IMG/VR virus record: IMGVR_UViG_3300003860_000007
Coordinates: 1 to 64,000 of that record
Direction: 5' to 3' (one strand)
From: a virus
DNA length: 64,000 nt
The notes under the pieces are model-generated. The model ran no database searches and was not told the DNA's origin. It was given only the letters and a program-made list of their open reading frames with translations. Position numbers and translations under genes: made by a program. Positions 1 through 40,893 of this stretch are shown here, piece after piece (within the stretch, counting starts at the first letter, position 1; each line of letters opens with the position of its first letter).

Positions 1-647
1 TTTAGAAATATAATTTCTACATTATTATAATGAGATAAAATATACTTCATTTTAATTTTATCTTTATTACTATACCAACCTTTTACTTCAAAAAATTTTT
101 GTAAATTTGGACACCAGAAATCAGGAAAATATAAATGTTCTTTTTTATTATCATCAATCCAAATTAAATTTAAATTATCTTTATATGAAACAGGTTTTAC
201 CCAATCTTTATCTAGATAATTTAAAATTTCTGCAAATCGTTTTTCATATGTTCCTTGAACTTTAACTATAGTTCCATCTAATTTTTTAGTTTCGTACCAT
301 TTACATCTTCTACTGCCTCCACTAGCATGCTTACCCCCACCCCCTTTATTATTTTTAGAAATTTGTTCCTTTGCTATTTGTGTATGCTTATATAAACTTT
401 TTCTACCTTTTATGGGTGAAATTTTACCTTTATTTGGATGCCAATTTTTTCCTTTTTCTGTATGACAAGCCCATATATGAAATTTTACATTTTTAAATTC
501 TTTATTACAATATGGACATTGTTTTATAAATTTTTCTTTTTTTACTTTTACTTTTATTATTCCACATTTATCATAATGTTTTTTAAAATTTGATATACTA
601 ATTTCTTTGTTACATTTATCACAAACTTTTTTAGTTCTTGATTTCAT
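1..647 (-). CDS. Zinc-finger + PD-(D/E)xK-fold nuclease-like protein, 3' end cut by window start; paralog of 25099..25764
   Basis: Minus-strand translation from ATG at 645-647 reads MKSRTKKVCDKCNKEISISNFKKHYDKCG...KWYETKKLDGTIVKVQGTYEKRFAEILNYLDKDWVKP...YFPDFWCPNLQKFFEVKG. It is co-linear with, and shares many identical stretches with, ORF 25099..25764. It is absent from the ORF track because it runs off the window. Confidence 0.5.
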   Translation of the reverse strand, partial: MKSRTKKVCDKCNKEISISNFKKHYDKCGIIKVKVKKEKFIKQCPYCNKEFKNVKFHIWACHTEKGKNWHPNKGKISPIKGRKSLYKHTQIAKEQISKNNKGGGGKHASGGSRRCKWYETKKLDGTIVKVQGTYEKRFAEILNYLDKDWVKPVSYKDNLNLIWIDDNKKEHLYFPDFWCPNLQKFFEVKGWYSNKDKIKMKYILSHYNNVEIIFL

Positions 648-703
648 ATGAATTATTTTTTATTTATTATATTCATATTAACTCTTTTAGTTTTGCTACT
701 TTT

Positions 704-2745: not shown

Positions 2746-2946
2746 TTATTCTTCTTTTATATAAGCGTTTTTTACTTTAACGTTTTTCTTTACAGCATTT
2801 ATAAACTGCCATGGATTTTCAATTCCATAAATTTCTTTTCTATAATTATTATCATATATTATGACTACACAATATGTAACAGGTTTAAGAGGCACATACC
2901 CATTAAAAAAGGATTTTGGATTATATGATTTAAAAAAATCACTCAT
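2746..2946 (-). CDS. Hypothetical small protein
   Basis: ORF track only. Confidence 0.3.
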   Translation of the reverse strand: MSDFFKSYNPKSFFNGYVPLKPVTYCVVIIYDNNYRKEIYGIENPWQFINAVKKNVKVKNAYIKEE

Positions 2947-3284
2947 TTATGTACTTTAAATCCTTTATCTTTTAGTAGTGCTTGTATACCAGATCTATAC
3001 CAACTAAACGCAGTTTGAGGATTACCTTTAACTGTAATATATTTTGTAATAAAATCTCCTATTTTTTGATCATATTTATGAGGAAACCAGTTATCAGCAG
3101 ATCTTATTATATCTTCAGGAATTTCACGTGTTTCTAAGATTTGATGTAAATGATCTACTATCCATTTATCTAATTCTAACCAAGTATTAAAATCGCGATG
3201 TACATAAAGTCCAATTCCCATATCTTCTATAGGATCCGATTCTTCTTTAAATACTTCATTTATATTTTCTCTAACTAATTTCAT
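2943..3284 (-). CDS. Member of conserved-N-terminal-module paralog family
   Basis: N-terminus MKLVRENINEVFKEESDPIEDMGIG. Confidence 0.6.
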   Translation of the reverse strand: MKLVRENINEVFKEESDPIEDMGIGLYVHRDFNTWLELDKWIVDHLHQILETREIPEDIIRSADNWFPHKYDQKIGDFITKYITVKGNPQTAFSWYRSGIQALLKDKGFKVHK

Positions 3285-4105
3285 TCGTAAAAAGGCATTT
3301 TAACTTTACAAATCTTTCTAATTTTCGCTTCAGTAATTCCATAATGCATAGACATACAAACAGTTCCATCTATTCTTTTTGGAAATCCTTTTAATGATCT
3401 TATATCGTTATCTGATGCATTAAAATCTTCTTTTACATATTCAGGAAATCCTATGCATGATTGTATAGTTCCTGGAACACAAAAATTTCCATACACATGG
3501 TGAAATTTAATATATTCAGGAAGTTTTTTATATTTTGGATAAGTATTTCTAACACAATATAAATTTACTTGACCTTGTACTGTAATGCTTAAATCTTTAT
3601 TTATAGTATAATCAATAATATTCATTTCTTTAAGCCAATCTTTAATCTTTTTAATGATTCCTATACCCATGTCTTGAATAGGATCAGTATCTTCAGCAAA
3701 TTTTTCATTAACTGATTCATTTATTTTTAATACATCAAAATATTCGTCCCAAACTTCTATAGGGGCAGATCCATATGTATAATAATATCCTCCCGAATCT
3801 ATATACCTTCTTGCTGTTATAGCGTTCTGCACATTATCTCCAAAATTAATTATTACTAAACTTAAAATATTTTTTTCTTTGTTTACTTCTTTAACTATAC
3901 TAGTATTGCCTTTACGAATTCTTGCGGTGACCTTTTCAATATTTTCGTCAAAAATAATATCATTGTTTTTTTGATATAAATCTTGTTTAACTATAATTAT
4001 ATCTCCTTTCTTTATTCTCGTAAATTTAGATCCAATACCTAAATCCCATATGGGATCAGTTCCTTGTTCAAATTTTTCATTTATATGTTCTTTTACTATT
4101 TTCAT
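3281..4105 (-). CDS. Member of conserved-N-terminal-module family (module present twice)
   Basis: N-terminal MKIVKEHINEKFEQGTDPIWDLGIG plus an internal second copy INESVNEKFAEDTDPIQDMGIG near aa 130. Confidence 0.6.
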   Translation of the reverse strand: MKIVKEHINEKFEQGTDPIWDLGIGSKFTRIKKGDIIIVKQDLYQKNNDIIFDENIEKVTARIRKGNTSIVKEVNKEKNILSLVIINFGDNVQNAITARRYIDSGGYYYTYGSAPIEVWDEYFDVLKINESVNEKFAEDTDPIQDMGIGIIKKIKDWLKEMNIIDYTINKDLSITVQGQVNLYCVRNTYPKYKKLPEYIKFHHVYGNFCVPGTIQSCIGFPEYVKEDFNASDNDIRSLKGFPKRIDGTVCMSMHYGITEAKIRKICKVKMPFYE

Positions 4106-4129
4106 ATATTCTATTTATCTAACAAAACA

Positions 4130-4159
4130 AAAGGCCAAGATTATAAAACCTTGGCCTTT
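4130..4159. terminator. Hairpin terminator-like (AAAGGCCAAG-loop-CTTGGCCTTT)
   Basis: Perfect 10-bp inverted repeat directly after gene 3281..4105. Confidence 0.5.
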
Positions 4160-4395
4160 CAATATCGTCTGAGAAAAATTAGGAAGCGTGTTTTTATAAG
4201 TTGTCTCTTATGCTCTAACCTACTTATCAATCTGTCCTGTACGTGATTAAAAGACGCCTAAGACACCGCACCTTCGGGAATTACGGCCCTTTCGGGAAAA
4301 TTGATGTTCAGAATCAAGAGCGCTGTCATAGTTTGAATTTATCTAGGTTGCCGAAATCCATCAGCTGGGTTTTAACTATGTTGCCATAGAAAAAA

Positions 4396-4785: not shown

Positions 4786-5361
4786 ATGATTAAAGAAGAA
4801 AAACATCATTATGTATATTTAACTACTAATCTTATCAATGGTAAACAATATATTGGTGATAGAACATGTAAATGTAATCCTGAAAATGATAAGTATTTAG
4901 GAAGTGGCAGACCATATTTTCAAAATGCTATTAAAGAATATGGAAAAAATAATTTTAGCAAACAAATACTTGAATGTTTTAATACAAGAGAAGAAGCTTT
5001 TAATGCCCAAGAAAAATATATTATACAATATAATACGCTTATTCCTAATGGATATAATATAAGTCCTAAAGGTGGCCATAATGTTAAAGAATGTTGGAGC
5101 AAAGAATCTAAAGAAAAATGCAGTAACACTAAAAAAGGAAAAATTGGATATTGGAAAAATAAAAAATTATCAGAAGAACATATTAAACATTTAAAAGAAA
5201 ATCATAAAGGAATGTTAGGAAAATATCATTCAGATGATTCTAAATTACAACTTAGTAATTCAATGAAAATCAAAAATAACGGAAAAGAAACAGAAGAACA
5301 TAAACAAAAAATAAAATTAAGTATGCAAAATTATTGGGCAAAAAAGAAATTAGTGCATTAA
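4786..5361 (+). CDS. GIY-YIG homing endonuclease with C-terminal NUMOD-like DNA-binding repeats
   Basis: HYVYLTTNLINGKQYIGD is a GIY...YIG motif. The C-terminal K/H-rich repeats GKIGYWKNKKLSEEHIKHLKENHKG match the Seg/I-TevI architecture. Confidence 0.85.
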   Translation: MIKEEKHHYVYLTTNLINGKQYIGDRTCKCNPENDKYLGSGRPYFQNAIKEYGKNNFSKQILECFNTREEAFNAQEKYIIQYNTLIPNGYNISPKGGHNVKECWSKESKEKCSNTKKGKIGYWKNKKLSEEHIKHLKENHKGMLGKYHSDDSKLQLSNSMKIKNNGKETEEHKQKIKLSMQNYWAKKKLVH

Positions 5362-5365
5362 TTTT

Positions 5366-5578
5366 CTATCTTGTAATTGCAACATCTCCAGTAGAACTTA
5401 TAACTACAACATAATGTGTATTATTCATATCTAGTTGATAAACTGAAGCTTTTCCATCTAACGTTGTAACTTTATAAGAAGATTGCGGGGGTGCTACAAC
5501 TTTAGTTGCAGCAAATACAGTTATAGCAAAAAGTAAAACAAGTGTTACTAAAACAATAATAAATTTTGGAGTTTTCAT
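5366..5578 (-). CDS. Small secreted or membrane-anchored protein
   Basis: N-terminal hydrophobic signal-like segment MKTPKFIIVLVTLVLLFAITVFAA. Confidence 0.35.
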   Translation of the reverse strand: MKTPKFIIVLVTLVLLFAITVFAATKVVAPPQSSYKVTTLDGKASVYQLDMNNTHYVVVISSTGDVAITR

Positions 5579-5579: not shown

Positions 5580-6755
5580 TTATTTTATATTAAGTTGATA
5601 TTTACAAAATTCTATCATTTTTTCATCTCCTGTATGTTTTCCTTCTGAATCAGACAATTTAATACAAGGTACCCATTCATCGTCAGGATCAGGTTTTGCT
5701 GCAATTAGTTTAATAACCATATTAAGTGGGTTAACTCCAACATCATTAGATAAATTTGTGCCTATTCCCATTGCGCATTTAATTTCTTTATTACATGATT
5801 TTGTTAATTCAATTGCAAGATCAGGATTAAGATTATCTGAAAAAATTATAGTTTTATCATTGGGGTCAATTCCCATACTTTGATAATGTTTAATAACTTT
5901 TTCTGCAAAATGAAATGGATTTCCACTATCATGTCTTACACCATCAAAAAGCTTTGAGAATTTTTTTCCAAATGATTTAAAGAATGATTCTGTTGTAAAT
6001 GTATCTGTAAGAGCAATTCCAAGATCACCTTGATAAACATTTGACCAGTTTTCAAGAGCTAAAAAATTTGCTTGTTTAAATCCATATTTTGCAGCATGAA
6101 ACATAAACCATTCATGTGCATGAGTTCCTATTGGAGTAAGATTAAACATATGAGCAAAGTGTACATTAGAAGTTCCATTAAAATTATCTCTCATACTAAA
6201 TGCTAAATCTTCTACAACTTCTTTTTGATTTTCATATGAATATCTTCTACGAGTTCCAAATTCAGAAATCTTAACTCCATGATTATTAAATAATGCAGCT
6301 TTTTTTAGATTATTTTGTTCTCTTTCTACTCTTGAATTTATTTTTTCTCCCGTCATTTTAAAATACAATTCAGATATAAGAGCAAGAAGTGGAACTTCCC
6401 AAAGAATTGTACGATACCAGTAGCCTTCTACAGTTACTTGAAGTTCACTTCCATTTTGTATAACTCCAACTTCTGAAGGATTATATCTATATCCTGCCAA
6501 AAAATCAAAATACGCAGGATCGATATATTTACATTTAGTTTCAAAGAAGTGTTTTTCTGCAGTCAAAAGTTTAAGAGAAGACATATGAGAAATTTGTAAT
6601 CTTAGTTCTTCTGCAAATCCTTCTGGAAAATTTACTTTTGAACGAACTATTAATGCATATTTAACTTTTGCTCTTGGAAAAAGTTTTAACACTGCATTCA
6701 TCATACTAAATTTATAAAGATCGTTATCGAGTATTGATGTAATTATAGGTTCCAT
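5580..6755 (-). CDS. pncB: Nicotinate phosphoribosyltransferase (PncB-like); probable start at internal MEPIITS, ORF track gives 5580..6794
   Basis: Motifs DNDLYKFSM, EFGTRRR, GTSNVHFA, PIGTHAHEW, GVRHDSGNP and GIGTNL follow PncB/NAPRTase order. The start is trimmed to the Met adjacent to the upstream stop. Confidence 0.75.
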   Translation of the reverse strand: MEPIITSILDNDLYKFSMMNAVLKLFPRAKVKYALIVRSKVNFPEGFAEELRLQISHMSSLKLLTAEKHFFETKCKYIDPAYFDFLAGYRYNPSEVGVIQNGSELQVTVEGYWYRTILWEVPLLALISELYFKMTGEKINSRVEREQNNLKKAALFNNHGVKISEFGTRRRYSYENQKEVVEDLAFSMRDNFNGTSNVHFAHMFNLTPIGTHAHEWFMFHAAKYGFKQANFLALENWSNVYQGDLGIALTDTFTTESFFKSFGKKFSKLFDGVRHDSGNPFHFAEKVIKHYQSMGIDPNDKTIIFSDNLNPDLAIELTKSCNKEIKCAMGIGTNLSNDVGVNPLNMVIKLIAAKPDPDDEWVPCIKLSDSEGKHTGDEKMIEFCKYQLNIK

Positions 6756-6756
6756 T

Positions 6757-7224
6757 TTATATTTTTTTAGCATGAAAATAAGTGACTCCATCAATTTCTG
6801 TCATATCAAGAATTTTAAATTGATATGCACTAAATAATGCTGTTACAATTCTTGGTGTTAACGATCTATCAATTTTATTATCTAATAAATTAAATATAAC
6901 ATCTATAAGCTTTCCATATAATATATGAGTTTTTAAACTCAACATAGGTTTACTTGCTATAAATTTTCCATATACATAAGTATTCTTTTTTAAAAGATTA
7001 TTAAAATCTTTAATAGTATCGTCTAAATATTTAATTTCATTTAATTTTTTAAGATGAACAAGCGTTTTAATTCCTTTTAGTTCATCTTTATCATAGAAAT
7101 AAAAATGTTTTCCCGAAAGAAATAAAACTTTTTCATCTTTAACTTTTTTATGTTTTTGCACATATGCATGCATAACATGATCATATGTTTCATCTTTATA
7201 TTGAATATCATTAAAACTTTTCAT
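6757..7224 (-). CDS. Hypothetical protein
   Basis: ORF track only. Confidence 0.35.
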   Translation of the reverse strand: MKSFNDIQYKDETYDHVMHAYVQKHKKVKDEKVLFLSGKHFYFYDKDELKGIKTLVHLKKLNEIKYLDDTIKDFNNLLKKNTYVYGKFIASKPMLSLKTHILYGKLIDVIFNLLDNKIDRSLTPRIVTALFSAYQFKILDMTEIDGVTYFHAKKI

Positions 7225-7226
7225 TA

Positions 7227-7592
7227 TTATCTTATTCTAAATGTATCAAAAAATGTTCTAAACGATAGTCTTTTTTTCAAAATTATTGTTTCAGATACGT
7301 ATTGAGTATCATTTTCATAATATTTTGTTCCTTTAGGAATTATGAATTTAAATACAGTTAAGTAAGAATGAGCATCATCTGCCGCAATTTTAAAACTTTT
7401 ATATGAATGATAGCCTATGTTAATAGAAACTTGATCATAATAAAAAGTAGCATCAAATTCTACTTTTTTATTTAAAAGATTTTTAGTATATTGAAAATCT
7501 GTAAACCAAGATATTCCTCTTCTAGTCATAGTTTTATAACAAACTATATCTTTTTTTGCTGTTTTAAGAACATTTTTTCCAGTAAAACACAT
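7227..7592 (-). CDS. Hypothetical protein
   Basis: ORF track only. Confidence 0.35.
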   Translation of the reverse strand: MCFTGKNVLKTAKKDIVCYKTMTRRGISWFTDFQYTKNLLNKKVEFDATFYYDQVSINIGYHSYKSFKIAADDAHSYLTVFKFIIPKGTKYYENDTQYVSETIILKKRLSFRTFFDTFRIR

Positions 7593-7603
7593 ATTTTTAA
7601 TTT

Positions 7604-8508
7604 TTAAAAGATTAGACTTCCTTCATCATCCCAACGACAATATAATTTACTATTTTCTCTTAAGATAACATATTTAAGAGATTCGTTATTGCCTTTAGAC
7701 ATACAATCATCATCAATAACAACTGACATTCCATTTATAGAATAAACTTTTGCACCAAACGGAAGAGTATAAAGAAATTCACCATTTCCCGCCTTTTTAG
7801 GAAACATTCTCTCAGTTCCTATATATGCATTTTCTCCTGTAATATATTTCTTAATAGCACTTATAGTTTCGTCTTTACATGCATTTTCTTTAACCCATTC
7901 ACCTTCGTCATTTATAATAAATCCATCTTTATCTAACTCATAATATATTTTTCTAAAAGTAACTTGATTTGCACCAAGAAATTTACATCTAGCTATAATT
8001 TCTTTTGGAGTATGATTATCATATTCTTTTAACATATTAAGACTTAAACGAATATTAAATCCTCGTGATTTAAGTAAAGAAATTAATTCTGATAAGTTAA
8101 ATTTTAATTTTTTAGAAACTCCAATTATATTTAAATTATTTTCATCAGAAAAAATATCAGCAACAGAAAGACTTATCGTATTTACTTGAAGTTTTTGTAA
8201 TAATCAATATTATCATCATCTAATAATACTCCAGTAGTTTGTAACTCAACATTAGGAAATGGATAATTTAAATCTTTAAATAAAACAGATAAAACTTTTA
8301 AGAAATTTGTATTTTGCAAAGCTTCTCCTGTTCCTGTAAGAATACAAGTATTTACTCCATTCATTACAGCATACTTAATACGTTTTTCTATTTGAATATA
8401 CATAAAAGTATCTTCATATGGAGAATCATGCATTCTACTTACACAAAATGGACATTTATTTACACAACTTTTTGTAGGAACTACGATAGAAATTGTCTAA
8501 ATGTTCAT
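7604..8508 (-). CDS. Radical-SAM activase-like protein (PflA/NrdG-like), disrupted: in-frame TAG at codon 4 and a +1 frame change near 8185-8203
   Basis: Minus strand reads ATG AAC ATT TAG then ...TISIVVPTKSCVNKCPFCVSRMHDSPY... with a CxxxCxxC cluster. ILTGTGEALQNTNF resembles the GGEA/P motif of glycyl-radical activating enzymes. ORF 8182..8433 ends in TAA. The reading frame of ORF 7604..8035 is open upstream to 8203 (LLQKLQVNTISLSVADIF...). Confidence 0.5.
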
Positions 8509-8523
8509 ATATTAATTATTATT

Positions 8524-8564
8524 GTGTAAATATAATACTAATTTCTGAATTAAAAAAATATTTT
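8524..8564 (-). promoter_or_regulatory. Copy of conserved promoter-like motif
   Basis: gtgtaaatataatactaatttctgaattaaaaaaatatttt, just 5' of the radical-SAM gene start. Confidence 0.45.
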
Positions 8565-8574
8565 GCTATTTATT

Positions 8575-9225
8575 TTAAATATTTCCTATAAAAGAAAGTG
8601 TAAGAGAATCTACATAATAAACTTTAGCTTGTGTAAAAGCTTCTATAGTTTCTGACAAATCTGAATTTATTGATTTACACGCATCTTCAATAACATATGT
8701 ATTAAAACCTTCCATTGCTGCATCTATTGCAGTTTCTTTCACACAATAATCTAGAGCTAAACCACATACGTAAACTTCAACTACATTTCTTTCATTAAGA
8801 AAATCTTGAAGTTTTTTAGGAGCATCTGGATTTATTATTTTTGATCTATCAAATGCACTATAAACATGATTATTCCTTTCCATGCCTTTTTTAAAGATAT
8901 AAAAATCTTTTTTGCATTTTGATAAATTCAGATCTGGATGAAATGAAGCACCTAATGTATCTGCTACACAATGATCAGGCCAAAGAATATCTTTTTCTCC
9001 ATTTTCTCTTACGTAACTATCGTAAACAGAAGCTCCGGGATGTTGTGAGGCGAAAGCATCCATTTCTGGATCATGCCAATCTTGTGTAAATATAACTAAA
9101 TCAAATCTTTCAAGGAGATCATTAACTACGGGTACAATTTTGTCTCCATCTGGTACTGCTAGTGATCCTCCAGGGCAAAAATCTCTTTGCAAATCGATCA
9201 CTATTAATGCTTTTTTCTTTATCAT
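8575..9225 (-). CDS. pncA: Nicotinamidase / isochorismatase-family hydrolase (PncA-like)
   Basis: IVIDLQRDFCPGGSLAV and the later Cys-containing segment match the PncA/isochorismatase fold signature. Confidence 0.75.
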   Translation of the reverse strand: MIKKKALIVIDLQRDFCPGGSLAVPDGDKIVPVVNDLLERFDLVIFTQDWHDPEMDAFASQHPGASVYDSYVRENGEKDILWPDHCVADTLGASFHPDLNLSKCKKDFYIFKKGMERNNHVYSAFDRSKIINPDAPKKLQDFLNERNVVEVYVCGLALDYCVKETAIDAAMEGFNTYVIEDACKSINSDLSETIEAFTQAKVYYVDSLTLSFIGNI

Positions 9226-9381
9226 ATCATCTTATAGTTTGAATTTCATATTCATCATATCCATCTCTTGATTCATCTGAATCTATACATACAATTTCTA
9301 ATCCAAATGATTGTAAAGCGTCTGATATATTGTCTACAATTTCATCAGCTCTATCATCATAATCTACTCTAAATTTTGATT

Positions 9382-10317
9382 TCATAATTCTTCCTTTTTA
9401 TTTTTAACATATCTATTGTATATACTATTTTCATTTTCTATTATATCGTGTCTATATATATTGACAGGATTATTTCTTTTGAATTGAGATTTTAAATGTC
9501 GTTGAATGACAGAGTGTTGACGCATTTTATTAATTTCATCCATATATACTGCATTAACAGTTGGTGAATGTTTTTCAATAAAGTCTAAATATTCTTTAAG
9601 TATTCTATCAACTTCTTTATAACCATCTCTAGAATTTCCTGTCCAGTCTGGCATTATTTGTCCAAGATCTCCAAGATTTGTAACTCCAAGGCCATCAGTT
9701 GCAAGTGCAGTTATCGTATTTATTATTGTACTTCCTGCTTCATAATTTCCAGCATATTCATTCATAGTTAACCATTCTGCCATATCATATACTTCTGTTT
9801 TCCAAAGATTTTGTATCATACCATAATCACCTACATCACCATGAAGAGTCCAAAAACCAAGAAGAAATTCTGTATAATTATCAGTAGAAAGAACTATTCC
9901 ACGATGATATGAAGCTAAATCATACAAATAAATCATACGCAGTCTTGCTTTAAGATTTCCATTACGTATACGACTTGATGAACCTTCAGGATTAGGCGCA
10001 TGAAACAGCATATTAGATTCCATTTTGGAATACATAAAATTATATTCTTCTTCAACGCTATGCTCTAAGAATTTTGTACAAAATACTTTTCCTGTTAATT
10101 TGGCTCTTTCTAATTCTTCTGGTTGATTTGAACTTACTGGCAAACTTCTTCCTATAAGTGGAATATTTAATTCATCACAAACTGGTCTAGCAAGTGCTGC
10201 GCAAAGACAACTATCTATTCCACCTGAAATCCCTATAATAAGAGACTTTATATTATTGTTTGTAATATACAGACTTAATTCTTTTCGAATATTCGATACT
10301 GCTATTTGATAATTCAT
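9382..10317 (-). CDS. nadE: NH3-dependent NAD+ synthetase (NadE)
   Basis: PP-loop IGISGGIDSCL (SGGxDS); overall length and layout match NadE. Confidence 0.8.
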   Translation of the reverse strand: MNYQIAVSNIRKELSLYITNNNIKSLIIGISGGIDSCLCAALARPVCDELNIPLIGRSLPVSSNQPEELERAKLTGKVFCTKFLEHSVEEEYNFMYSKMESNMLFHAPNPEGSSSRIRNGNLKARLRMIYLYDLASYHRGIVLSTDNYTEFLLGFWTLHGDVGDYGMIQNLWKTEVYDMAEWLTMNEYAGNYEAGSTIINTITALATDGLGVTNLGDLGQIMPDWTGNSRDGYKEVDRILKEYLDFIEKHSPTVNAVYMDEINKMRQHSVIQRHLKSQFKRNNPVNIYRHDIIENENSIYNRYVKNKKEEL

Positions 10318-10325: not shown

Positions 10326-10559
10326 TTATTTACGTATTATCCAAAATAATAACCAAAGTATAGTCGTGGGTATCCAAATTGCCCAAGTAAATATTGAAAA
10401 TTTTTCACTATTTTTTGCCCAACATAAAAATGTTAAAATAGCAGAAGTAGCACTCATTAAAAATAATACACCTGGATAAATAGGGATAAAAAGATTTCCT
10501 ACTATTAAAATTACAGTAGTAATTATTAAAGCCATTGTGAAATTTTCAAAAATTTTCAT
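10326..10559 (-). CDS. Small integral membrane protein
   Basis: Two hydrophobic helices. Confidence 0.35.
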   Translation of the reverse strand: MKIFENFTMALIITTVILIVGNLFIPIYPGVLFLMSATSAILTFLCWAKNSEKFSIFTWAIWIPTTILWLLFWIIRK

Positions 10560-10586: not shown

Positions 10587-11090
10587 TTATAAATCATTTT
10601 CTTTGTGTTTACACCAAGTTAGATATTCATCTTGATCTCTTATCCATTGTAATAATTCTGGATCAGTAACTTGTTCATGTTCTATTTTAGACCATAATTC
10701 GTTATCTCTTTCATTTTTATCATATTGATTAACGAAATATATTTTCTTAATTCCCGCTGCTATTATATTTTTCAAACATTCACTGCAAGGTTCAAGTATA
10801 CAATAAAGTTCTGCTTCTTCAATAGCAATTCCATGTTTGGCTGCAAAATTAATAGCATTCATTTCAGCATGAACCTCATATTTTTTAGACCAATTATGAT
10901 GGGCTTCTCTATCAGTTAGAAAATTATAATTAGGAAAATGATCACAACAATTTTCAAATCCTTTAGGTGTCCCATTTATTCCCGTGGAAATAATTCTTCT
11001 ATCATGAACAATAAGAGCTCCCACTTGTCTTGAGACACATTTAGATTCTTGTCCAAGTAAATATGCTGTTTTAAGAAAGAAATGTTTCAT
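10587..11090 (-). CDS. dCMP / cytidine deaminase (T4 Cd-like)
   Basis: HAEMNAI...PCSECLKNI is the zinc-binding H-A-E ... PC-x-x-C deaminase signature. Confidence 0.8.
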   Translation of the reverse strand: MKHFFLKTAYLLGQESKCVSRQVGALIVHDRRIISTGINGTPKGFENCCDHFPNYNFLTDREAHHNWSKKYEVHAEMNAINFAAKHGIAIEEAELYCILEPCSECLKNIIAAGIKKIYFVNQYDKNERDNELWSKIEHEQVTDPELLQWIRDQDEYLTWCKHKENDL

Positions 11091-11538: not shown

Positions 11539-11656
11539 ATTGTTATTTGTTTATTATAATGCTAATATATAAAAAATATGAATACGATGTGATTTTTTGT
11601 TGTTAATTTTTTGTTAAAAAAGCAAAAGGGAGAATTTCTTCTCCCTTTCTATTCTA

Positions 11657-13360
11657 TTAGATTTCAATCTTGTTGATTTCATCTATGATTACCTGTGGGT
11701 TTATTTCAACCTGAGGAATCTTTTCGTAGATGTCTTGACCGTAGCCGTAAAGACGGAATACTCTGTTTCCACCCTTTATAGGAGCAGTTGCTGCATATCC
11801 GCATACGTTGATGATGTATACGTATGGTGTTCCGAACTTCTTGCAGTATCCTGCATAAGAATTTTCTACATTGCTGTATCCATCCTGTTCGTCAGAGATG
11901 ATAAGAATTCTATCGTACTGCTTGTTAGTTCTTTCAAACAACTTGAAGCAAGAACCGAAATCTGTACCGTGACCGCAACATCCGTTGTAGGACATGAACT
12001 TCTGCTTTAACGTATTGATTGAATCGATTGGGTTCCAACCTACAATCTGTTCAGCAGTAGAAGCGAAATGGTATACATCTCCACCAACACCCTTTGCAAA
12101 TGTTGCAGCTACAAGTGCAGCCTTGTCAGCTGGCTTCTTATTGATAGCCTTCTTAGGGTCACCATTAAGATAAATGCTGGAGTATCCACCTTTCATAGAA
12201 CCTGATGTATCGAATACAACTGCTGTTCTACCTTCTGGAAGCAAGTTCTGAAGGTTTGGAATTGACAATTCATATGCTGTTGAAAGTGCCTTTGCAACCT
12301 TAGCCAACTGTGTTCCGTTGAATTCAAGTGTCATCACTTCAAGAGCAATGTCAATCTGGTGTGGCCATACAAGAGACTTACGGATGAATTCCTTTTCAAC
12401 AAGTAAATCGCACGCCTTGTCAAGAAGAACAGTATCATTGGTCTTAAGAATGTTACGTACGTTACGAAGTAATGCAAGGTACCCAATCTTCTTAGTTTCA
12501 ATAAGTTCCTTGTAGTTTTCAGTCTTAGCTTCATTAAGTTCAACAGTTGCCTGTTCCTTAGTGATAGTTCCAGCCTTAACCTTTTCAGCTACAACCTTTC
12601 CTGCTTCAGTATTCTTATCTTCAACAGTGTTGAACTGCTTAAGAACGCCAAGAACAAGAGCCTTAAGAGTTGGAAGACCAACATTACCATTTTCAGGTGC
12701 ATCTAAAAGATATTCATCCTTTTCGAACTTAGTACCCTTAACAGCCTTCAAGTATTCAGCTTCTGATACAAATACTGTTCCATTTATAGGTGTTTCATGT
12801 GGGTGCACTAAGTTAACGATGTCAACAAGGCTTACACCACGTGACTTCATCTGGTACTTAGCTAACTGATATGCATCTGCATGTTCAATTGCATCCTTGA
12901 ATCCCTTCTTAATAGCGTTTGGAATTGGTGCTTCTACACCATTCTTAGCCTGGTAACATGCAAGAATTTCTGCCATGTCATCAAGACGATAAACGATACC
13001 TCCACGATTTTCCTTACGGTCTCTCTTAGAGAAGAATCTCTTAGCGATTTCAGAACCTGCAAGGTGAGGGATTAATTCTACTGCACCGTAATGAGTAACA
13101 GAACGCTGTCCAAATACTGTACGTGCATAGATAAGTGCCTTAGCTGCGAATAATGCATTCTTCTGCGCAACTCTATTGATAACTTCACGGAATCTCTTTT
13201 CACGTTCAGTTTCCTTTTCGTAATAAGTATTATCTAAACCAGTAGATAAAATACCAATTAATTCATGTTCTGGCTTCTGTGTTAAACCAGTTCCACCCTG
13301 TAAAGTTACAGTTTCCTTAACTTCTGGGTTGCTTACTCTCTTTTCATTGTACTTTGACAT
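11657..13360 (-). CDS. Ro60/Rsr-like TROVE-domain protein with C-terminal vWA/MIDAS domain
   Basis: N-terminal region (TGLDNTYY..., ALFAAKALIYARTVFGQRS) parallels the Ro60 TROVE region. C-terminal VVFDTSGSM is a DxSxS MIDAS motif. The gene is visibly more GC-rich than its neighbours and is preceded by AAAGGAGGT. Confidence 0.6.
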   Translation of the reverse strand: MSKYNEKRVSNPEVKETVTLQGGTGLTQKPEHELIGILSTGLDNTYYEKETEREKRFREVINRVAQKNALFAAKALIYARTVFGQRSVTHYGAVELIPHLAGSEIAKRFFSKRDRKENRGGIVYRLDDMAEILACYQAKNGVEAPIPNAIKKGFKDAIEHADAYQLAKYQMKSRGVSLVDIVNLVHPHETPINGTVFVSEAEYLKAVKGTKFEKDEYLLDAPENGNVGLPTLKALVLGVLKQFNTVEDKNTEAGKVVAEKVKAGTITKEQATVELNEAKTENYKELIETKKIGYLALLRNVRNILKTNDTVLLDKACDLLVEKEFIRKSLVWPHQIDIALEVMTLEFNGTQLAKVAKALSTAYELSIPNLQNLLPEGRTAVVFDTSGSMKGGYSSIYLNGDPKKAINKKPADKAALVAATFAKGVGGDVYHFASTAEQIVGWNPIDSINTLKQKFMSYNGCCGHGTDFGSCFKLFERTNKQYDRILIISDEQDGYSNVENSYAGYCKKFGTPYVYIINVCGYAATAPIKGGNRVFRLYGYGQDIYEKIPQVEINPQVIIDEINKIEI

Positions 13361-13404
13361 AGTGTACCTCCTTTTTTTACTATTAGTTTATACTAAAGAA
13401 TTAA

Positions 13405-13635
13405 TTAACATATTACTATAAAATGTTTTCTGTTTTCATTATCTTCACACTTAACAGGCATGAATCTTTTATCTTCATAATCTTCTCTTGCAACTTGCAT
13501 CCAACCATTTTCGGTTCCTGCTGGATTGTCTCTATTTGCTACCTCAAGTATTTCTTCATCAGTAGCGTCCCATTCTGCGCAAACTTGCATATAACATATG
13601 CCTATCATCGGCTGTGAAACTATTACTCTTTCCAT
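13405..13635 (-). CDS. Hypothetical acidic protein
   Basis: ORF track only; GC-richer like the Rsr gene. Confidence 0.3.
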   Translation of the reverse strand: MERVIVSQPMIGICYMQVCAEWDATDEEILEVANRDNPAGTENGWMQVAREDYEDKRFMPVKCEDNENRKHFIVIC

Positions 13636-13656
13636 ATTAAATTTTATTAAAAATAA

Positions 13657-13693
13657 AAAAGCCTGAGTAATTTTTTACGATTTCTCAGGCTTT
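13657..13693. terminator. Hairpin terminator-like (AAAGCCTGAG-loop-CTCAGGCTTT)
   Basis: 10-bp perfect inverted repeat with A and T runs. Confidence 0.5.
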
Positions 13694-13784
13694 GCAATAT
13701 AATCATAAAGTTCAAGTTATGAGCTATGCAAATAAAAGTTGAGAAATCTGAGAAGAGTTTAAATTGAAAATTCTAATAAAGATC

Positions 13785-13813
13785 GTTCGATGTAACTCTT
13801 TCTCTTACTACAA
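13785..13813. repeat. Dispersed R repeat copy
   Basis: gttcgatgtaactctttctcttactacaa. Confidence 0.45.
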
Positions 13814-13913
13814 TCAATTATATTATTATATATAAAGTCAAAAACTCTTTGTTTTTAGACTTAGTGTTAAAATTTTGTTAAAGATTTATTTATTAAAATT
13901 ATAGTGTAAATAT

Positions 13914-13956
13914 AATAAAAATTCTTGACAGAAAAAACTTTTTATGTTAAAATTTT
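13914..13956 (-). promoter_or_regulatory. Copy of conserved promoter-like motif
   Basis: gtgtaaatataataaaaattcttgacagaaaaaactttttatg. Confidence 0.45.
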
Positions 13957-13957
13957 G

Positions 13958-14551
13958 TTAAAATAATGAAATATTTTTGGTACGATGTAATAATCCATAT
14001 ATTATAAATGCATGACCCATCTTTTTATTTGGATCTGTAATAACATCCATAAGAGATTTATTCATCTTAACATGATTGTATCCATCAAAATCTATCAAAT
14101 AAATATCTCGTTTTTCAGTTTTATATAATTCTAAAAGTTGCTTATATGCTTCGCTTTGTAATAAAGCTCTTTTATAAATAGGAATGTAAATTTTAATTCT
14201 TGCTTGAATATATGATAATTTTTCTCCATCCCAATAACTATATAAAGGTTTTGCATCTCTACCCATAGGATATCTGTGAGCAAAATTATCATTCCATATT
14301 TTTTCAGCCCATTCAAAATATGCTGGAGAAGGATCGCCTTTTTCATCTACAAATTCTTTATATACCTTTGATGCTTGCCAGGCGTTTTCTACATTCTTTG
14401 CATAATATCCTTTATACAAATGCCCGCCCGGAAGAACAAAAGGAGATAAACCTTGAGTCCAATTTCCTGAACCTGCTCTTGAAGTTGTATTAATTACTAC
14501 TGCGCCCTCAGGTATCTCATACCTTTTAGCGTATGATTCTACGTATAACAT
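13958..14551 (-). CDS. NADAR-domain (YbiA-like) protein
   Basis: ENAWQASKVY and PMGRDAKPLYSYWDG parallel the EHYFQAQKF and ARMGRDRSKPL motifs of YbiA/NADAR. Confidence 0.5.
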   Translation of the reverse strand: MLYVESYAKRYEIPEGAVVINTTSRAGSGNWTQGLSPFVLPGGHLYKGYYAKNVENAWQASKVYKEFVDEKGDPSPAYFEWAEKIWNDNFAHRYPMGRDAKPLYSYWDGEKLSYIQARIKIYIPIYKRALLQSEAYKQLLELYKTEKRDIYLIDFDGYNHVKMNKSLMDVITDPNKKMGHAFIIYGLLHRTKNISLF

Positions 14552-14553
14552 AG

Positions 14554-14594
14554 TGTAAATATAATAAAAAATTCTGAATTGAAAATATTTATGT
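14554..14594 (-). promoter_or_regulatory. Copy of conserved promoter-like motif; ends at the ATG of 13958..14551
   Basis: gtgtaaatataataaaaaattctgaattgaaaatatttatg. Confidence 0.45.
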
Positions 14595-14742
14595 GTTAAA
14601 ATTTTGTTAAAATGATGAAACTAAACTTTATAGTTAATATATAAATTATATAACCTTGTACTTGGGGGTTTAGTGTTTGAAAGAACATTCGAGTTGGAGA
14701 AATACCAACGAATAAATTCTCAAATATAAAATAACATAAGGA

Positions 14743-15612
14743 ATGAAAATAAATTACTCAACTCAAAGGGTAACTGTGCCCACTGTATACGTGACCAAAG
14801 GTCGCCAAAGAGTAAAACAGTATGATAACACAATCTATCTTAAAAATGGAGACGAATTCGAAATAGAATTATTCAATCCATTACAATCTAAAGTTTTAGC
14901 GAAAATTGAACTCAACGGAAAGTATCTTGGTGCTGGAATAGTTTTACGTCCAGGTGAAAGAATGTTTCTTGAAAGATACATCGAAGAGTCCAGAAAATTC
15001 ATGTTTCAAACATATGAAGTTGATGGTGGTGATACTAATGTTCAAGAAGCTATTAAACTTAATGGAGTATTAGAGGTTAAATTTTATAAAGAAACTGCAC
15101 CTTCACAACCATATTACAGAAGTTCTACTATAACTTACACAACCAATCCAAGTTGGACAGTAACACCTACTTATACACATTATAATACAACAATAGGATA
15201 TTCTGGTGTAAAAAGTTCAAAAGGAGACATAGAAAATCCTGGTGTTGTTTTTGGTAATGCTACTACTTTATCATGTTCTGTGGATAATACAAAATCATAT
15301 GTAGATAGTATGCCCATTGGAGGTGAAGGATTAGGATTTGCGGGATGCGCTGATTTTTCAAGAGACTTTGCTCCACAAGAACAAACAATAGAAACTGGAA
15401 GAGTAGAAAAAGGTTCAAAATCAGATCAAGAATTTTCTACAGATAATACGCAATTTGATGTTTATTATAGTTGGAGAAGTGTTTGGAAAATTCTTCCAGA
15501 ATCTCAAAAGCCACTTATGTCTGAAGACTTAAAAGTATTTTGTACAAATTGTGGAGCTAAAAGAAAAAAATCTTCTCATAAATTTTGCCCAAACTGTGGC
15601 AACCAATTTTAA
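14743..15612 (+). CDS. Hypothetical protein with C-terminal zinc ribbon
   Basis: C-terminal CTNCGAKRKKSSHKFCPNCG; TAAGGA Shine-Dalgarno-like sequence upstream. Confidence 0.5.
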   Translation: MKINYSTQRVTVPTVYVTKGRQRVKQYDNTIYLKNGDEFEIELFNPLQSKVLAKIELNGKYLGAGIVLRPGERMFLERYIEESRKFMFQTYEVDGGDTNVQEAIKLNGVLEVKFYKETAPSQPYYRSSTITYTTNPSWTVTPTYTHYNTTIGYSGVKSSKGDIENPGVVFGNATTLSCSVDNTKSYVDSMPIGGEGLGFAGCADFSRDFAPQEQTIETGRVEKGSKSDQEFSTDNTQFDVYYSWRSVWKILPESQKPLMSEDLKVFCTNCGAKRKKSSHKFCPNCGNQF

Positions 15613-15646
15613 TTATTAACTAAACACAAGGTTATATAAAAAACTA

Positions 15647-15672
15647 AAGAGGACTTTAAGTCCTCTTTTTTA
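15647..15672. terminator. Rho-independent terminator (AAAGAGGAC-TTTAA-GTCCTCTTT then T-run)
   Basis: Perfect hairpin followed by T-run after + gene 14743..15612. Confidence 0.6.
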
Positions 15673-15996
15673 TGAATATAATTCATCAATTTTATTTTGA
15701 ATATTAGATTTTGGACATAATCCTACTTGATGCCAAATATTACCGCCATCCTTAAAAAATATCAATGTGGGAATACTTCGTATACCAAATAATTTAGTAA
15801 CTTCATGACTTTCATCTACGTTACATTTAACAACTTCTATTTTTTGGTTTTCTTCTGAAAGTTCTTCCATAATTGGACCTAATACTCTACAAGGTCCACA
15901 CCATTCTGCCCAAAAATCAACTATTATAGATTTTCCCGAATCTATAAGAATTTCTTTATAATTTTTATCAGTTATTTCTCTCATATTATAATTCAT
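15670..15996 (-). CDS. Thioredoxin
   Basis: WAEWCGPCR active site; about 108 aa. Confidence 0.85.
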   Translation of the reverse strand: MNYNMREITDKNYKEILIDSGKSIIVDFWAEWCGPCRVLGPIMEELSEENQKIEVVKCNVDESHEVTKLFGIRSIPTLIFFKDGGNIWHQVGLCPKSNIQNKIDELYS

Positions 15997-16171
15997 TTAT
16001 TAAAATTTGTGCTGCTATTTCACAATCATATTCATTTTCATATACGTGTGTACTTGCTCCTTTAACTACTGTACCATCTAAAGATTTTACTACAAACTCA
16101 AAATCATTATAAATAGGATGACAATGTATCTCAATCATATACCCATTATATTCGTAGTTTTTATTTATCAT
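15986..16171 (-). CDS. Small hypothetical protein (paralog of 16168..16368)
   Basis: Shares an N-terminal YNGY.I.I pattern with the next ORF. Confidence 0.3.
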   Translation of the reverse strand: MINKNYEYNGYMIEIHCHPIYNDFEFVVKSLDGTVVKGASTHVYENEYDCEIAAQILINEL

Positions 16172-16368
16172 GATACTATCCAGCCATCTTTATTTGCGGT
16201 TAAACGATTTATATACAGTTTTGCATGTAATTCAGCTTCTGATGGATATGGAAAACTTGGTCCTGTTGGTGTAATTATTTTTCCATCTTTCATAATAGTA
16301 TACTGATAAGCTGTATGCGTTTCATTAATACTAATAAGATATCCGTTATAAACAATGTTATTTTCCAT
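16168..16368 (-). CDS. Small hypothetical protein (paralog of 15986..16171)
   Basis: ORF track. Confidence 0.3.
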   Translation of the reverse strand: MENNIVYNGYLISINETHTAYQYTIMKDGKIITPTGPSFPYPSEAELHAKLYINRLTANKDGWIVS

Positions 16369-16381
16369 AATTTATTTATTT

Positions 16382-16458
16382 TGGTTGTCCCGGCAAGGCT
16401 CGAACTTGAAGTCTTCAGAATCAAAATCTGACGTGTTAACCGATTACACCACGGGACA
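16382..16458 (-). tRNA. tRNA-Gln (anticodon UUG), CCA encoded
   Basis: Acceptor TGTCCCG/CGGGACA, anticodon arm TCAGA-TTTTGAT-TCTGA, T-arm CAAG-TTCGAGC-CTTG, 3' ACCA. Confidence 0.65.
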
Positions 16459-17100
16459 ATTTATAAAATCTAATAATTTTTCTATTGTAAAATATTTCAA
16501 TTCATAATATGGTATTCTATATATTCTCCATCCTTTAGATCTTAAAAAATTATCTTTTTTCATATCATGTTCAACCCTTTTTAATCCGTTAGTAAAATGA
16601 GGTTCTCCATCATATTCAATAGCAATTTTTTGATCAACAAAAGCAAAATCTATAAAATAAGGATAAATTGGATATTCATTTATAATTGAATATTTTTCAT
16701 AAAAACTATTATCTTTAAGCATTTTATTTATTATGCTTTCTCCTTTACTCATCAATCTTTTATGTCTATTTGTAAAAGTTGAAATATTATTTTCATCAGA
16801 TAAATAGTCAAAACGTTTTTGTCTTAAAATTTCTTTAGATTGTTCGTTATGATGTTTATCCTTGAATGCGTTAGTTATGTTTCCTTCTTTATAATTTTGT
16901 TTTAATGTGTTTGATTGTTGTAAAATAGACGCATTATTATGTTTTGTTTTTCCTTTTGCCCAGTGTATTTTTTCACCAGTTTTCAATGTTTTTCCCGTAT
17001 CATGTGCTTTACCTTCTTCTGTATGAGTCCTCCAAATATGGCCTTTAATTCCATATTTATTATATTCTTTTTCGCAATAAGGACATTTCATACAATACAT
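16444..17100 (-). CDS. Zinc-finger + PD-(D/E)xK (DUF559/Vsr-like) nuclease-fold protein; putative homing endonuclease
   Basis: N-terminal CPYCEKEY...HIWRTH. C-terminal YFIDFAFVDQKIAIEYDGEPH...KDNFLRSKGWRIYRI is a D...E.D restriction-endonuclease-like core. Confidence 0.55.
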   Translation of the reverse strand: MYCMKCPYCEKEYNKYGIKGHIWRTHTEEGKAHDTGKTLKTGEKIHWAKGKTKHNNASILQQSNTLKQNYKEGNITNAFKDKHHNEQSKEILRQKRFDYLSDENNISTFTNRHKRLMSKGESIINKMLKDNSFYEKYSIINEYPIYPYFIDFAFVDQKIAIEYDGEPHFTNGLKRVEHDMKKDNFLRSKGWRIYRIPYYELKYFTIEKLLDFINCPVV

Positions 17101-17106
17101 TTAATT

Positions 17107-17184
17107 TGGTAGCGGGGAAGGGAATCGAACCCCTGTAGTACGGGTTATGAGCCCGAGCTGGAACCGTCTCCAGTCCACCCCGCG
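17107..17184 (-). tRNA. Initiator tRNA-fMet (anticodon CAU), CCA encoded
   Basis: 5' CGCGGGG with 1:72 mismatch (C1/U72); anticodon stem-loop TCGGG-CTCATAA-CCCGT with three G-C pairs; T-arm AGGGG-TTCGATT-CCCTT; 3' ACCA. Confidence 0.65.
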
Positions 17185-17190
17185 ATATTT

Positions 17191-17397
17191 CTAAAAAGTT
17201 TTAATGTCTAGAGGATTGCTTAAATCAAGATGATCCTCTTTAACAATATAAGTTCTTCCAATCGATTTTTGTGAAAAATAACTCTCAAGTAATTCTCCTA
17301 ATCTAAGATTTGTGTATTGATTTGGATTACTTTCTTTAGATAAAAGAATTTTCACTGCATCTGATCTGTGAATTTCAAAAAAAGTATTTTCTGACAT
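17191..17397 (-). CDS. Hypothetical protein
   Basis: ORF track only. Confidence 0.3.
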   Translation of the reverse strand: MSENTFFEIHRSDAVKILLSKESNPNQYTNLRLGELLESYFSQKSIGRTYIVKEDHLDLSNPLDIKTF

Positions 17398-40296: not shown

Positions 40297-40893
40297 TTAC
40301 TGTTTTTTATATAAAATATTAAATTTTTCTAATGCCATTTTAATTCTCTTATCATGTTCAAACGCCCATTCATATTTATCAATATCTTCAACCGGAATCC
40401 AATGCACCATATCTACTTCTTCACTGATAAATTGTTCAATATCTCTTGGAAGTAATTTTTGTGCAAGCGTAAAATCAAAAGCTAAACAATAATTTAATGC
40501 TATATTTTGACGGCATTCTTTAGATTCTGTTTCAACATAAAAAGGTTCTTTATTATTTGTAAATGCAAGATATTTTGAATAATCTTCAATAAGAAATGAG
40601 GTTTCTTCATATAGCTCTCTTCGTACTGCATCCCAGCCATTTTCATTCCAGTCTATGTATCCTCCTGGAGCTACCCATTTTCCAGGTTCGTCTCTTATTA
40701 TTTCAGATCTTTTTTCTCCAAGAACATGCACGCCATCACTAAATTCACCAAATACTATCGCTACTACTGCAACTGAACGAGATTCCCAAACTTCTCTTTT
40801 CTTAAAGAATTTTGAAAGTATCCAATAAATCCATTTTGGAAAAATAAAAACAAAATGGCAAGAGTTTAATTTATTAGTAAATATCGGTATCAT
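40297..40893 (-). CDS. Nudix hydrolase
   Basis: Nudix box GGYIDWNENGWDAVRRELYEETS (Gx5Ex7REUxEExGU). Confidence 0.7.
   Translation of the reverse strand: MIPIFTNKLNSCHFVFIFPKWIYWILSKFFKKREVWESRSVAVVAIVFGEFSDGVHVLGEKRSEIIRDEPGKWVAPGGYIDWNENGWDAVRRELYEETSFLIEDYSKYLAFTNNKEPFYVETESKECRQNIALNYCLAFDFTLAQKLLPRDIEQFISEEVDMVHWIPVEDIDKYEWAFEHDKRIKMALEKFNILYKKQ

Follow-up and report, generated by a model that had tools for sequence, protein, structure and literature searches.

A PncA-PncB-NadE cluster for probable NAD+ salvage in a jumbo phage with a likely Bacteroidota host

The DNA analyzed here (the window) comprises positions 1-64,000 of the viral record IMGVR_UViG_3300003860_000007, and with a further 8.7 kb read beyond the window start, about 73 kb of a genome of roughly 380-400 kb was covered. 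It carries a cluster of genes predicted to act in the salvage of nicotinamide adenine dinucleotide (NAD+), in which PncB, PncA and NadE together span 4.7 kb. A first-pass annotation had named five open reading frames (ORFs), encoding PncB, PncA, NadE, a NADAR-like protein and a Nudix hydrolase, and all five were present on the minus strand at the coordinates that it gave. The identities assigned to PncB, PncA, NadE and the Nudix hydrolase were borne out by Pfam, NCBIfam and PDB matches, as was the description that only small ORFs and a radical S-adenosylmethionine (SAM) gene lie between the three enzymes, which are listed below with lengths in amino acids (aa).

5580..6755, minus strand: PncB, nicotinate phosphoribosyltransferase, 391 aa (Pfam, NCBIfam, 2IM5)
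8575..9225, minus strand: PncA, nicotinamidase, 216 aa (Pfam, NCBIfam, solved nicotinamidases)
9382..10317, minus strand: NadE, single-domain protein of the NH3-dependent NAD synthetase family, 311 aa (PF02540, TIGR00552)

PncB matched the Pfam families NAPRTase_N (PF17767, E-value 1e-32) and NAPRTase (PF04095, 1e-58), and exceeded the cut-offs of two NCBIfam models that covered residues 1-385 (NF003704, 467.6 bits vs. 379; TIGR01514, 427.3 vs. 269.55). Its best relative of solved structure was the NAPRTase of Porphyromonas gingivalis (2IM5, E 5e-109), with the next match at 2e-72. The protein carries GTRRR at residues 167-171 and G210-THAHEW216, and the GTHAHEW motif is unchanged across four phage orthologues; H214, within the pattern GT-x-A-H-E-W, is presumably the counterpart of the autophosphorylated histidine of enteric PncB. 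The possibility that this protein is a hidden NAMPT or Namat was ruled out by the NCBIfam equivalog scores and the similarity to 2IM5.

PncA matched the Pfam family Isochorismatase above the Pfam threshold (6.5e-26), and its best solved relatives were all nicotinamidases (E 1e-44 to 6e-24). The triad D11/K113/C161 and the metal ligands D49/H51/H85 aligned with those of the Acinetobacter (2WT9) and Pyrococcus (1ILW) enzymes. For NadE, PF02540 matched at 3e-35 and TIGR00552 at 110.2 bits against a cut-off of 63.65, and the PP-loop S31-GGIDS36, STDNYTE, HGDVGD and LWKTE motifs were found in a core that aligned with 3FIU and 3P52. The PDB matches of NadE were at E 4e-16 and weaker, with 3FIU on top, and Pfam and NCBIfam models detected the synthetase domain only, with no glutaminase (nitrilase-like) domain. 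Judged from these alignments, PncB, PncA and NadE keep their catalytic motifs. The first-pass annotation had allowed that the PncB-like protein might be NAMPT with a standard nicotinamide mononucleotide adenylyltransferase (NMNAT) elsewhere, as in the known pathway NARP2, or that the enzymes might be inactive variants lacking catalytic residues; the PncB-type NCBIfam scores, together with the absence of PF01467 proteins from the window and its flanks, speak against the former, and the intact catalytic residues of PncA, NadE and PncB against the latter.

The neighborhood was compared with phage loci taken from 362 IMG/VR viral contigs that carry PncB relatives; locus counts rest on the best 80 of these matches, each with 10-kb flanks, and individual loci are denoted by L numbers. 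The elements around the three enzymes are as follows.

11624..11649, minus strand: terminator-like hairpin of 11 pairs with a T run, upstream of the unit and just after the TROVE gene
10587..11090, minus strand: deoxycytidylate (dCMP) deaminase, at the head of the same gene string and syntenic with NadE in related phages
9227..9385, minus strand: ORF of 52 aa between NadE and PncA, for which neither family searches nor the 80 related loci gave a match
7604..8511, minus strand: broken radical SAM gene, called as 83 aa and 143 aa (CxxxCxxC motif, PF04055)
7227..7592, minus strand: ORF of 121 aa, phrog_13450 (PHROG match)
6757..7224, minus strand: ORF of 155 aa with homologues in L006, L014, L015 and L046, recurring between the radical SAM gene and PncB
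5366..5578, minus strand: ORF of 70 aa with an N-terminal hydrophobic segment, 1 nucleotide (nt) downstream of PncB
4128..4161, minus strand: terminator-like hairpin of 15 pairs with a T run, downstream of the unit

From NadE through the 70-aa ORF, neighboring genes overlap or are 1-10 nt apart; only the radical SAM gene is preceded by a longer gap, of about 65 nt. The 52-aa ORF, for instance, shares 4 nt with the 3′ end of NadE and stops 1 nt short of the PncA start. The two terminator-like hairpins enclose a gene string that starts with two small ORFs and the dCMP deaminase. Based on the tight packing and the two flanking hairpins, the NAD genes are probably co-transcribed. A promoter scan gave nothing above the shuffled background, with a tool that does not cover Bacteroidota promoters. 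The 121-aa ORF has one homologue among the 80 related loci, located 3′ of PncB in L006. The small ORF immediately upstream of NadE (10326-10559, minus strand, 8 nt away) encodes a 77-aa protein with three apparent hydrophobic segments; no family match and no homologue in the related loci were found for it, and its consideration as a small transporter-like protein is pure speculation.

The first-pass annotation recognized three of the four Preiss-Handler steps and saw no NadD motif in the intervening ORFs; both statements held, and the motif was absent from the whole window as well. The missing step is the adenylyl transfer that converts nicotinic acid mononucleotide (NaMN) to nicotinic acid adenine dinucleotide (NaAD). 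When all window ORFs of at least 70 codons were translated with TAG read as Gln and scanned with Pfam, no PF01467 protein, NAMPT, phosphoribosyl pyrophosphate (PRPP) synthetase, AAA_28/NadR or PnuC was found. Further, a hidden Markov model (HMM) built iteratively from 51 adenylyltransferases adjoining phage PncB genes gave zero matches in the window or in the 8.7 kb beyond its start, with the flanks L002 and L089 included and even with the filters off. A cryptic adenylyltransferase in 6757-7224 or 7227-7592, which the first-pass annotation had proposed to look for with HMMs, was rejected, as neither ORF had Pfam, NCBIfam or PHROG support and the phage-NMNAT HMM was silent on both; the family profile of the 155-aa ORF produced only noise against PDB sequences.

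With the NadR-like protein of a close relative as query, not one of the best 120 homologues (identities down to 38%) was located on a contig of 378 or 405 kb, while the phage's own proteins do show the 405,016-bp contig, so a NadR orthologue is probably absent genome-wide. A metagenome scan with a NadD profile likewise returned no contig of 378 or 405 kb among the matches listed. Most likely, the NaMN to NaAD conversion is performed by the host NadD, or by a phage gene outside the 73 kb. To our knowledge, NadD is near-universal and essential in bacteria, and a dependence of the phage pathway on the host enzyme is what we infer for this cluster. Because two thirds of comparable loci have an adenylyltransferase within 10 kb, its absence here is better read as a gap filled by the host or by the rest of the genome than as a design feature, and the three genes by themselves do not make a closed pathway.

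These comparable loci were obtained by dereplication at 90% PncB identity and by requiring full flanks, which left 28 loci, and both PncA and NadE accompany PncB in 21 of them; in the best 80 loci before this selection, PncA and NadE were likewise found with PncB in most cases. An HxGH adenylyltransferase of the NadD- or NadR-like type was found within 10 kb in 14 of the 21 PncA-PncB-NadE loci, and none in the other 7, as in the window. PncB relatives were found in only 13 GenBank phage records, including 'huge phages' of 462-735 kb and human-gut phages, and a megablast search of the cluster against GenBank phages gave no match. Two arrangements were the most frequent. Gut phages have a compact PncA-PncB-NadE-(AAA)-NadD-Nudix operon (e.g., MT835470.1). 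The closest relatives, whose PncB is 58-75% identical, share the order dCMP deaminase ... NadE-PncA-radical SAM-PncB, and often have a NadR-like protein (NMNAT plus kinase) 5-9 kb downstream of PncB. In the 735-kb phage LR756501.1 (L005), positions 13002-21475 form one island of PncA, NadR-like, PnuC, TonB-dependent receptor, NadE and PncB genes, which is an uptake-plus-salvage set joining a NARP3-like pair with the deamidating route.

The nearest cellular PncB genes are overwhelmingly of Bacteroidota, with 53-62% identity. When partners were sought within 6 kb of the 80 nearest cellular PncB genes, PncB stood alone in 77 loci. These results indicated that phages brought the genes together instead of taking over a host operon, since cellular PncB is mostly solitary. 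The cluster proteins were identical on contigs from two independent samples.

The radical SAM gene of the cluster is broken. Codon 4 (8500-8502) reads TAG but is CAA or CAG in four orthologues, and a -1 shift of frame occurs near 8190 at an A5 run, where A6 would restore an orthologue-like Y-K-K-L-Q-V-N-T; the orthologues are intact at 300-320 aa. Because the identical split was called on ENA and Logan contigs, and the 143-aa product was also recorded under JGI, the break is taken as a real feature of the genome, and the three NAD enzymes thus persist without an intact copy. Programmed frameshifting was considered and rejected, as C AAA AAC is by inspection a poor slippery heptamer and a 1-nt loss from A6 fits the orthologues better. 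A recoding of TAG to Gln is suggested by the codon-4 TAG and by a transfer RNA (tRNA) with anticodon CTA, of the amber suppressor type (18769-18842, minus strand), but is not claimed, since the gene is frameshifted and long ORFs are without in-frame TAG.

The radical SAM family itself matches only the generic Radical_SAM model of Pfam and comprises 236 proteins, nearly all nameless, in a database of 5.8 billion proteins; its profile found no match among PDB sequences at E 0.01 or better, and structure modelling predicts a MoaA/viperin-like fold. A family HMM detected it in 21 of 83 phage PncB loci, and its distance from PncB never exceeded about 2.5 kb. The related loci concerned are L007-L025, L028, L029, L035, L036, L046 and L091, and L036 has a tight NadD-radical SAM-PncB-NadE-PncA operon. 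The gene also adjoins PncB on a short contig of a metagenome-assembled genome, while it was present in 0 of the 80 nearest cellular PncB loci. A radical SAM family linked to pncB was not found in the literature searched.

The other two proteins named by the first-pass annotation lie outside the cluster.

13958..14551, minus strand: DUF6939 protein, 197 aa (PF22075)
40297..40893, minus strand: Nudix hydrolase, 198 aa (PF00293, 4.8e-12)

The Nudix gene, 34 kb away from the NAD cluster, encodes a Nudix box of the pattern GX5EX7REUXEEXGU at residues 77-100, GGYIDWNENGWDAVRRELYEETSF, in which the final Gly is replaced by Ser. The protein shares 31% identity (E 4e-18) with the Nudix protein of L004, which closes the gut-phage PncA-PncB-NadE-NadD-Nudix operon, and resembled the NadM-Nudix and NtrR (ADP-ribose type) models only weakly, with scores under the thresholds. 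The protein at 13958..14551 had been described as a NADAR-domain protein. Structural modelling does predict a divergent protein with a NADAR-like fold; however, by Pfam it belongs to DUF6939, with no match to NADAR (PF08719), and its gene is located beyond the upstream terminator-like hairpin, outside the transcription unit of the cluster. An hhalign comparison of the DUF6939 family with Escherichia coli YbiA was non-significant (E 0.91), no PDB sequence matched the protein, and no conserved linkage of its gene to NAD genes was found.

The genome around the cluster is that of a jumbo phage. Exactly the same PncB protein was found on the 378,433-bp ENA metagenome contig k141_3826914 of ERZ27247879, well over the jumbo-phage size of more than 200 kb; an independent sequencing run yielded it as well, on a short contig. 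A protein cluster that includes the identical DUF6939 protein has a longest contig of 405,016 bp. From about 56615 onward the window overruns the start of the ENA contig, which makes a circular or circularly permuted genome probable. The window is AT-rich throughout (G+C 24-35% in 2-kb steps), with most genes on the minus strand, and 16 tRNA genes lie between 735 and 25971; among these are four Leu isoacceptors as well as a second gene for Leu-CAA. Assignment to a jumbo phage follows from the 16 tRNAs, the homing-endonuclease-like genes, and the collagen/Peptidase_S74 and PKD/DUF285 proteins, listed below with the genes for RNA maintenance.

51533-55420, plus strand: collagen-repeat protein, 1295 aa, with a C-terminal Peptidase_S74 chaperone domain, a probable fibre
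56241-63113, plus strand: PKD and DUF285 repeat protein, 2290 aa, after the collagen-repeat gene
4786-5361 and 29692-30396, plus strand: free-standing homing-endonuclease-like genes (GIY-YIG/NUMOD3, DUF559/MTES_1575)
37143-37844, 16444-17100, 23406-24209, 25099-25764 and 6-659, minus strand: further free-standing genes of these homing-endonuclease-like types (GIY-YIG/NUMOD3, DUF559/MTES_1575)
11657-13360, minus strand: TROVE (Ro-like) protein, 567 aa
among 19367-19741 and 38183-38653, minus strand: PTH2 peptidyl-tRNA hydrolase, and a HAD domain of the Swiss-Army-Knife RNA-repair type

The host is probably a member of the Bacteroidota, because genes just beyond the window start (L089) encode Por_Secre_tail and PorP_SprF domains of the type IX secretion system of Bacteroidota, the best solved relative of PncB is 2IM5, and the nearest cellular PncB genes belong to this phylum. 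As for the homing endonucleases, GIY-YIG paralogues occupy differing positions within the NAD cluster of related phages, and they may be a cause of its variable spacing and rearrangement. The TROVE, PTH2 and RNA-repair HAD proteins and the large tRNA set make up an RNA-maintenance theme in the window. Uncommon phage cargo is also present, namely an SPFH/Band 7 protein of 519 aa (30426-31985, minus strand) followed by a membrane protein (32018-32542, minus strand), and a papain-family (Peptidase_C1) cysteine protease (28154-28930, minus strand) close to the SPFH/Band 7 gene. Further, a module of about 30 residues with the consensus ..VRE.INEKF.EESDPI.DMGIG, for which no family match was found, occurs in eight copies across seven otherwise unlike ORFs; seven copies are near the N-terminus and one is internal, in the two-copy ORF 3281-4105.

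2943-3284, 3281-4105 (two copies), 26653-27051, 27756-28148, 28940-29461, 50500-51069 and 51033-51470, all minus strand: ORFs with the 30-residue module

Taken together, the cluster probably gives a jumbo phage, whose host is likely a Bacteroidota member, an auxiliary module for NAD+ salvage, with the adenylyl step most likely supplied by the host NadD or encoded elsewhere. The chemistry of the PncA, PncB and NadE families is well established and gives the following scheme. Nicotinamide would be released from NAD+ by TIR, SIR2 or related NADases, or by NAD-consuming enzymes of the phage itself. PncA would then deamidate nicotinamide to nicotinate, and PncB would join nicotinate to PRPP, with adenosine triphosphate (ATP), to form NaMN. 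After conversion of NaMN to NaAD by an adenylyltransferase, most probably the host NadD, NadE would use ammonia and ATP to produce NAD+. More speculatively, the Nudix hydrolase might split ADP-ribose into AMP and ribose 5-phosphate, feeding PRPP synthesis. The net effect would be an increased flux from free nicotinamide to NAD+ during infection, and the raised NAD+ could both serve the phage's own demand and rebuild the NAD+ pool after cleavage by host NADases.

Several points weigh against this scheme. By far the top model for PncA was NF008623 (nicotinamidase/pyrazinamidase), yet its score of 156.8 bits fell just below the cut-off of 174. In NadE, the curated models and PDB alignments end at about residue 187 and none matches the C-terminal ~120 residues, so the sequence leaves both NaAD and NaMN as candidate substrates. 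An HMM built from phage NadE orthologues did span residues 5-297, suggesting that the divergent C-terminal half is a conserved trait of the phage clade and not a truncation. The broken radical SAM gene shows some decay within the cluster, and the roughly 310 kb beyond the covered part of the genome fits a phage NadD encoded there as well as it fits reliance on the host NadD. No feature of the window connects the module with any one defence system, and an anti-defence role is put forward by inference only. Finally, the activities of PncA, PncB and NadE are deduced from sequence, and all functions proposed here come from sequence and predicted structure.

The substrate of NadE is the point at which a Francisella-type route would enter, with NadE amidating NaMN to nicotinamide mononucleotide (NMN) and a NadR- or NadM-like NMN adenylyltransferase then making NAD+. 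The best solved relative of the phage NadE is indeed 3FIU, from the F. tularensis NadE homologue, which we take to be the structure of an NMN synthetase; however, its lead over ordinary NAD synthetases is only about 3 bits. The NMN-synthetase signature, presumably Tyr27 and Gln133 of the Francisella enzyme, aligns with Asn21 and Ser136 in the phage protein. The adenylyltransferase near the cluster in the closest relatives is usually NadR-like (NMNAT plus ribosylnicotinamide kinase), with L021 also having a NadD-like one, whereas this phage has no apparent NadR orthologue, and gut-phage clusters with a related NadE have a NadD-type enzyme. Overall this route appears quite unlikely, even with the precedent of F. 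tularensis, in which NadM has replaced NadD and the NadE homologue serves as the NMN synthetase (PMC3376133).

The damage in the radical SAM gene, with its frameshift and in-frame TAG, could also mean that the whole cluster is the decaying remnant of a formerly complete set, in which an adenylyltransferase was present and the radical SAM gene was intact, and that it no longer raises NAD+. This would agree with the unrelated genes that this phage has 5-9 kb downstream of PncB, where close relatives have the NadR-like gene, and with the homing endonuclease genes dispersed across the region. However, PncB, PncA and NadE have their full length and keep every catalytic residue checked, the cluster proteins are identical on contigs of two independent samples, and the 7 of 21 comparable loci that also are without a nearby adenylyltransferase suggest a stable state on host NadD; decay of the module is thus very unlikely. 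That the cluster is host DNA, brought in by a mis-assembled or mis-binned contig or present as a host island, is barely credible: the 53-62% identity of PncB to Bacteroidota chromosomal enzymes would allow it, but the low G+C is uniform across the window, the surroundings are phage-like (16 tRNAs, homing endonucleases and the collagen-like fibre with Peptidase_S74), the same arrangement is on hundreds of viral contigs, and cellular PncB genes are without these neighbors. A reading that concerns purpose more than chemistry is that the module feeds the phage's own NAD use, for instance in RNA repair or ADP-ribosylation, instead of countering host defence. The window does contain the RNA-repair HAD domain, TROVE/Ro-like and PTH2 proteins, 16 tRNAs, and the NADAR-like and Nudix proteins, and jumbo-phage surveys relate genes of this kind to NAD-utilising enzymes and to RNA repair that depends on NAD (PMC7824862; PMC11662467). 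The Pfam scan of the window, however, detected no NAD-dependent ligase, Tpt1/KptA, SIR2 or ADP-ribosyltransferase. Own use as the exclusive purpose is therefore possible though somewhat doubtful, and it is compatible with the anti-defence reading, as the same chemistry is needed for both.

For the probable salvage module itself, the interest lies in the fact that NAD+ depletion is among the commonest bacterial anti-phage strategies, and that none of the experimentally demonstrated pathways NARP1-3 takes the deamidating route. The cluster and its hundreds of relatives are thus candidates for NAD+ restoration by PncA-PncB-NadE, with or without a phage adenylyltransferase. Two hypotheses arise from the comparison, that about a third of such phages depend on the host NadD, and that a radical SAM enzyme, whose gene was seen solely beside phage pncB, possibly performs an extra chemical step. 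A bolder proposal, which we regard as unlikely, is that a deamidating PncA-PncB-NadE module, able to work with host NadD alone, constitutes a fourth NAD reconstitution strategy against NADase defences. One large phage lineage would have added to it, beside pncB, small partner ORFs and a phage-specific radical SAM enzyme of MoaA/viperin-like fold, which would carry out a novel reaction on a pyridine or nucleotide substrate. No 'NARP4' and no study of a phage nicotinamidase was found in the literature, and the preprint on NARP1 and NARP2 (Osterman et al., bioRxiv 10.1101/2024.02.11.579819) makes no mention of PncA, NadE or a deamidating route.

Compared with the defined systems, NARP2 (Nampt and Nmnat) likewise starts from nicotinamide and ends in NAD+, and its first committed enzyme also belongs to the PF04095 superfamily. 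However, NARP2 keeps the amide and needs two steps via NMN, whereas the route proposed here deamidates and re-amidates in four steps at the cost of more ATP; the protein of the window passes the PncB equivalog models and not those of NAMPT, and no Nmnat is in the window or its flanks. NARP1 (Adps and Namat) is also a phage-encoded NAD+ restoration, but reuses ADP-ribose via ADPR-pyrophosphate, while the window has no PRPP-synthetase-like Adps and its sole PF04095 protein is PncB. NARP3 consists of PnuC and a NadR-like protein (Sci Adv 2026, PMC13464706). Relatives of the cluster resemble it in joining PncA/PncB/NadE with a NadR-like protein and sometimes PnuC (L005, L007-L011, L031, L038), whereas the window is without PnuC (PF04973) or NadR, and the NadR orthologue is apparently absent genome-wide. 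With no component of NARP1, NARP2 or NARP3 in the window, the cluster differs from every NAD reconstitution pathway defined by experiment. The first-pass annotation was right in this respect when it described a solution different from the known ones; its novelty is limited, however, by the Preiss-Handler jumbo phages already described (PMC11662467).

Among cellular systems, the bacterial PncA-PncB-NadD-NadE route (pyridine nucleotide cycle/Preiss-Handler) has the same families and chemistry, and the PncB of the window is closest to Bacteroidota enzymes; the difference is in organization, as cells have a solitary pncB while phages join pncA, pncB and nadE, often with nadD or nadR, Nudix and radical SAM genes. 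The F. tularensis route is similar in that the short single-domain NadE has the Francisella protein as its best solved relative and the Nudix hydrolase weakly resembles the Nudix half of NadM-Nudix, and different in that no NadM was found here and the presumed signature residues are not shared.

The nearest description is that of gut jumbo phages, of which 174 of 668 encode complete salvage or Preiss-Handler pathways, many with predicted Bacteroidota hosts (Microbiome 2024, PMC11662467). That computational study showed a pncB-nadD-nadE cluster (e.g., Kuafu_71) and mentioned phage pncA (PMC11662467), and an earlier jumbo-phage survey had discussed NAD-centred counter-defence genes including NADAR and Nudix (PMC7824862). 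The phages of PMC11662467 resemble the present one in being jumbo phages with a probable Bacteroidota host, clustered pncB and nadE, and a proposed phage-driven NAD+ synthesis. They were counted only when every pathway step was encoded, whereas nadD or an equivalent was not found within the 73 kb examined here, and that study is silent on the Nudix link, on the conserved radical SAM gene and on the NADAR-like protein. The window is therefore a fresh example of the computationally described Preiss-Handler jumbo phages and not a new system. To that description, this analysis adds a recurrent state without a nearby adenylyltransferase, seen in about one third of comparable loci (7 of 21), a clustering that is specific to phages, and a pncB-linked radical SAM family.

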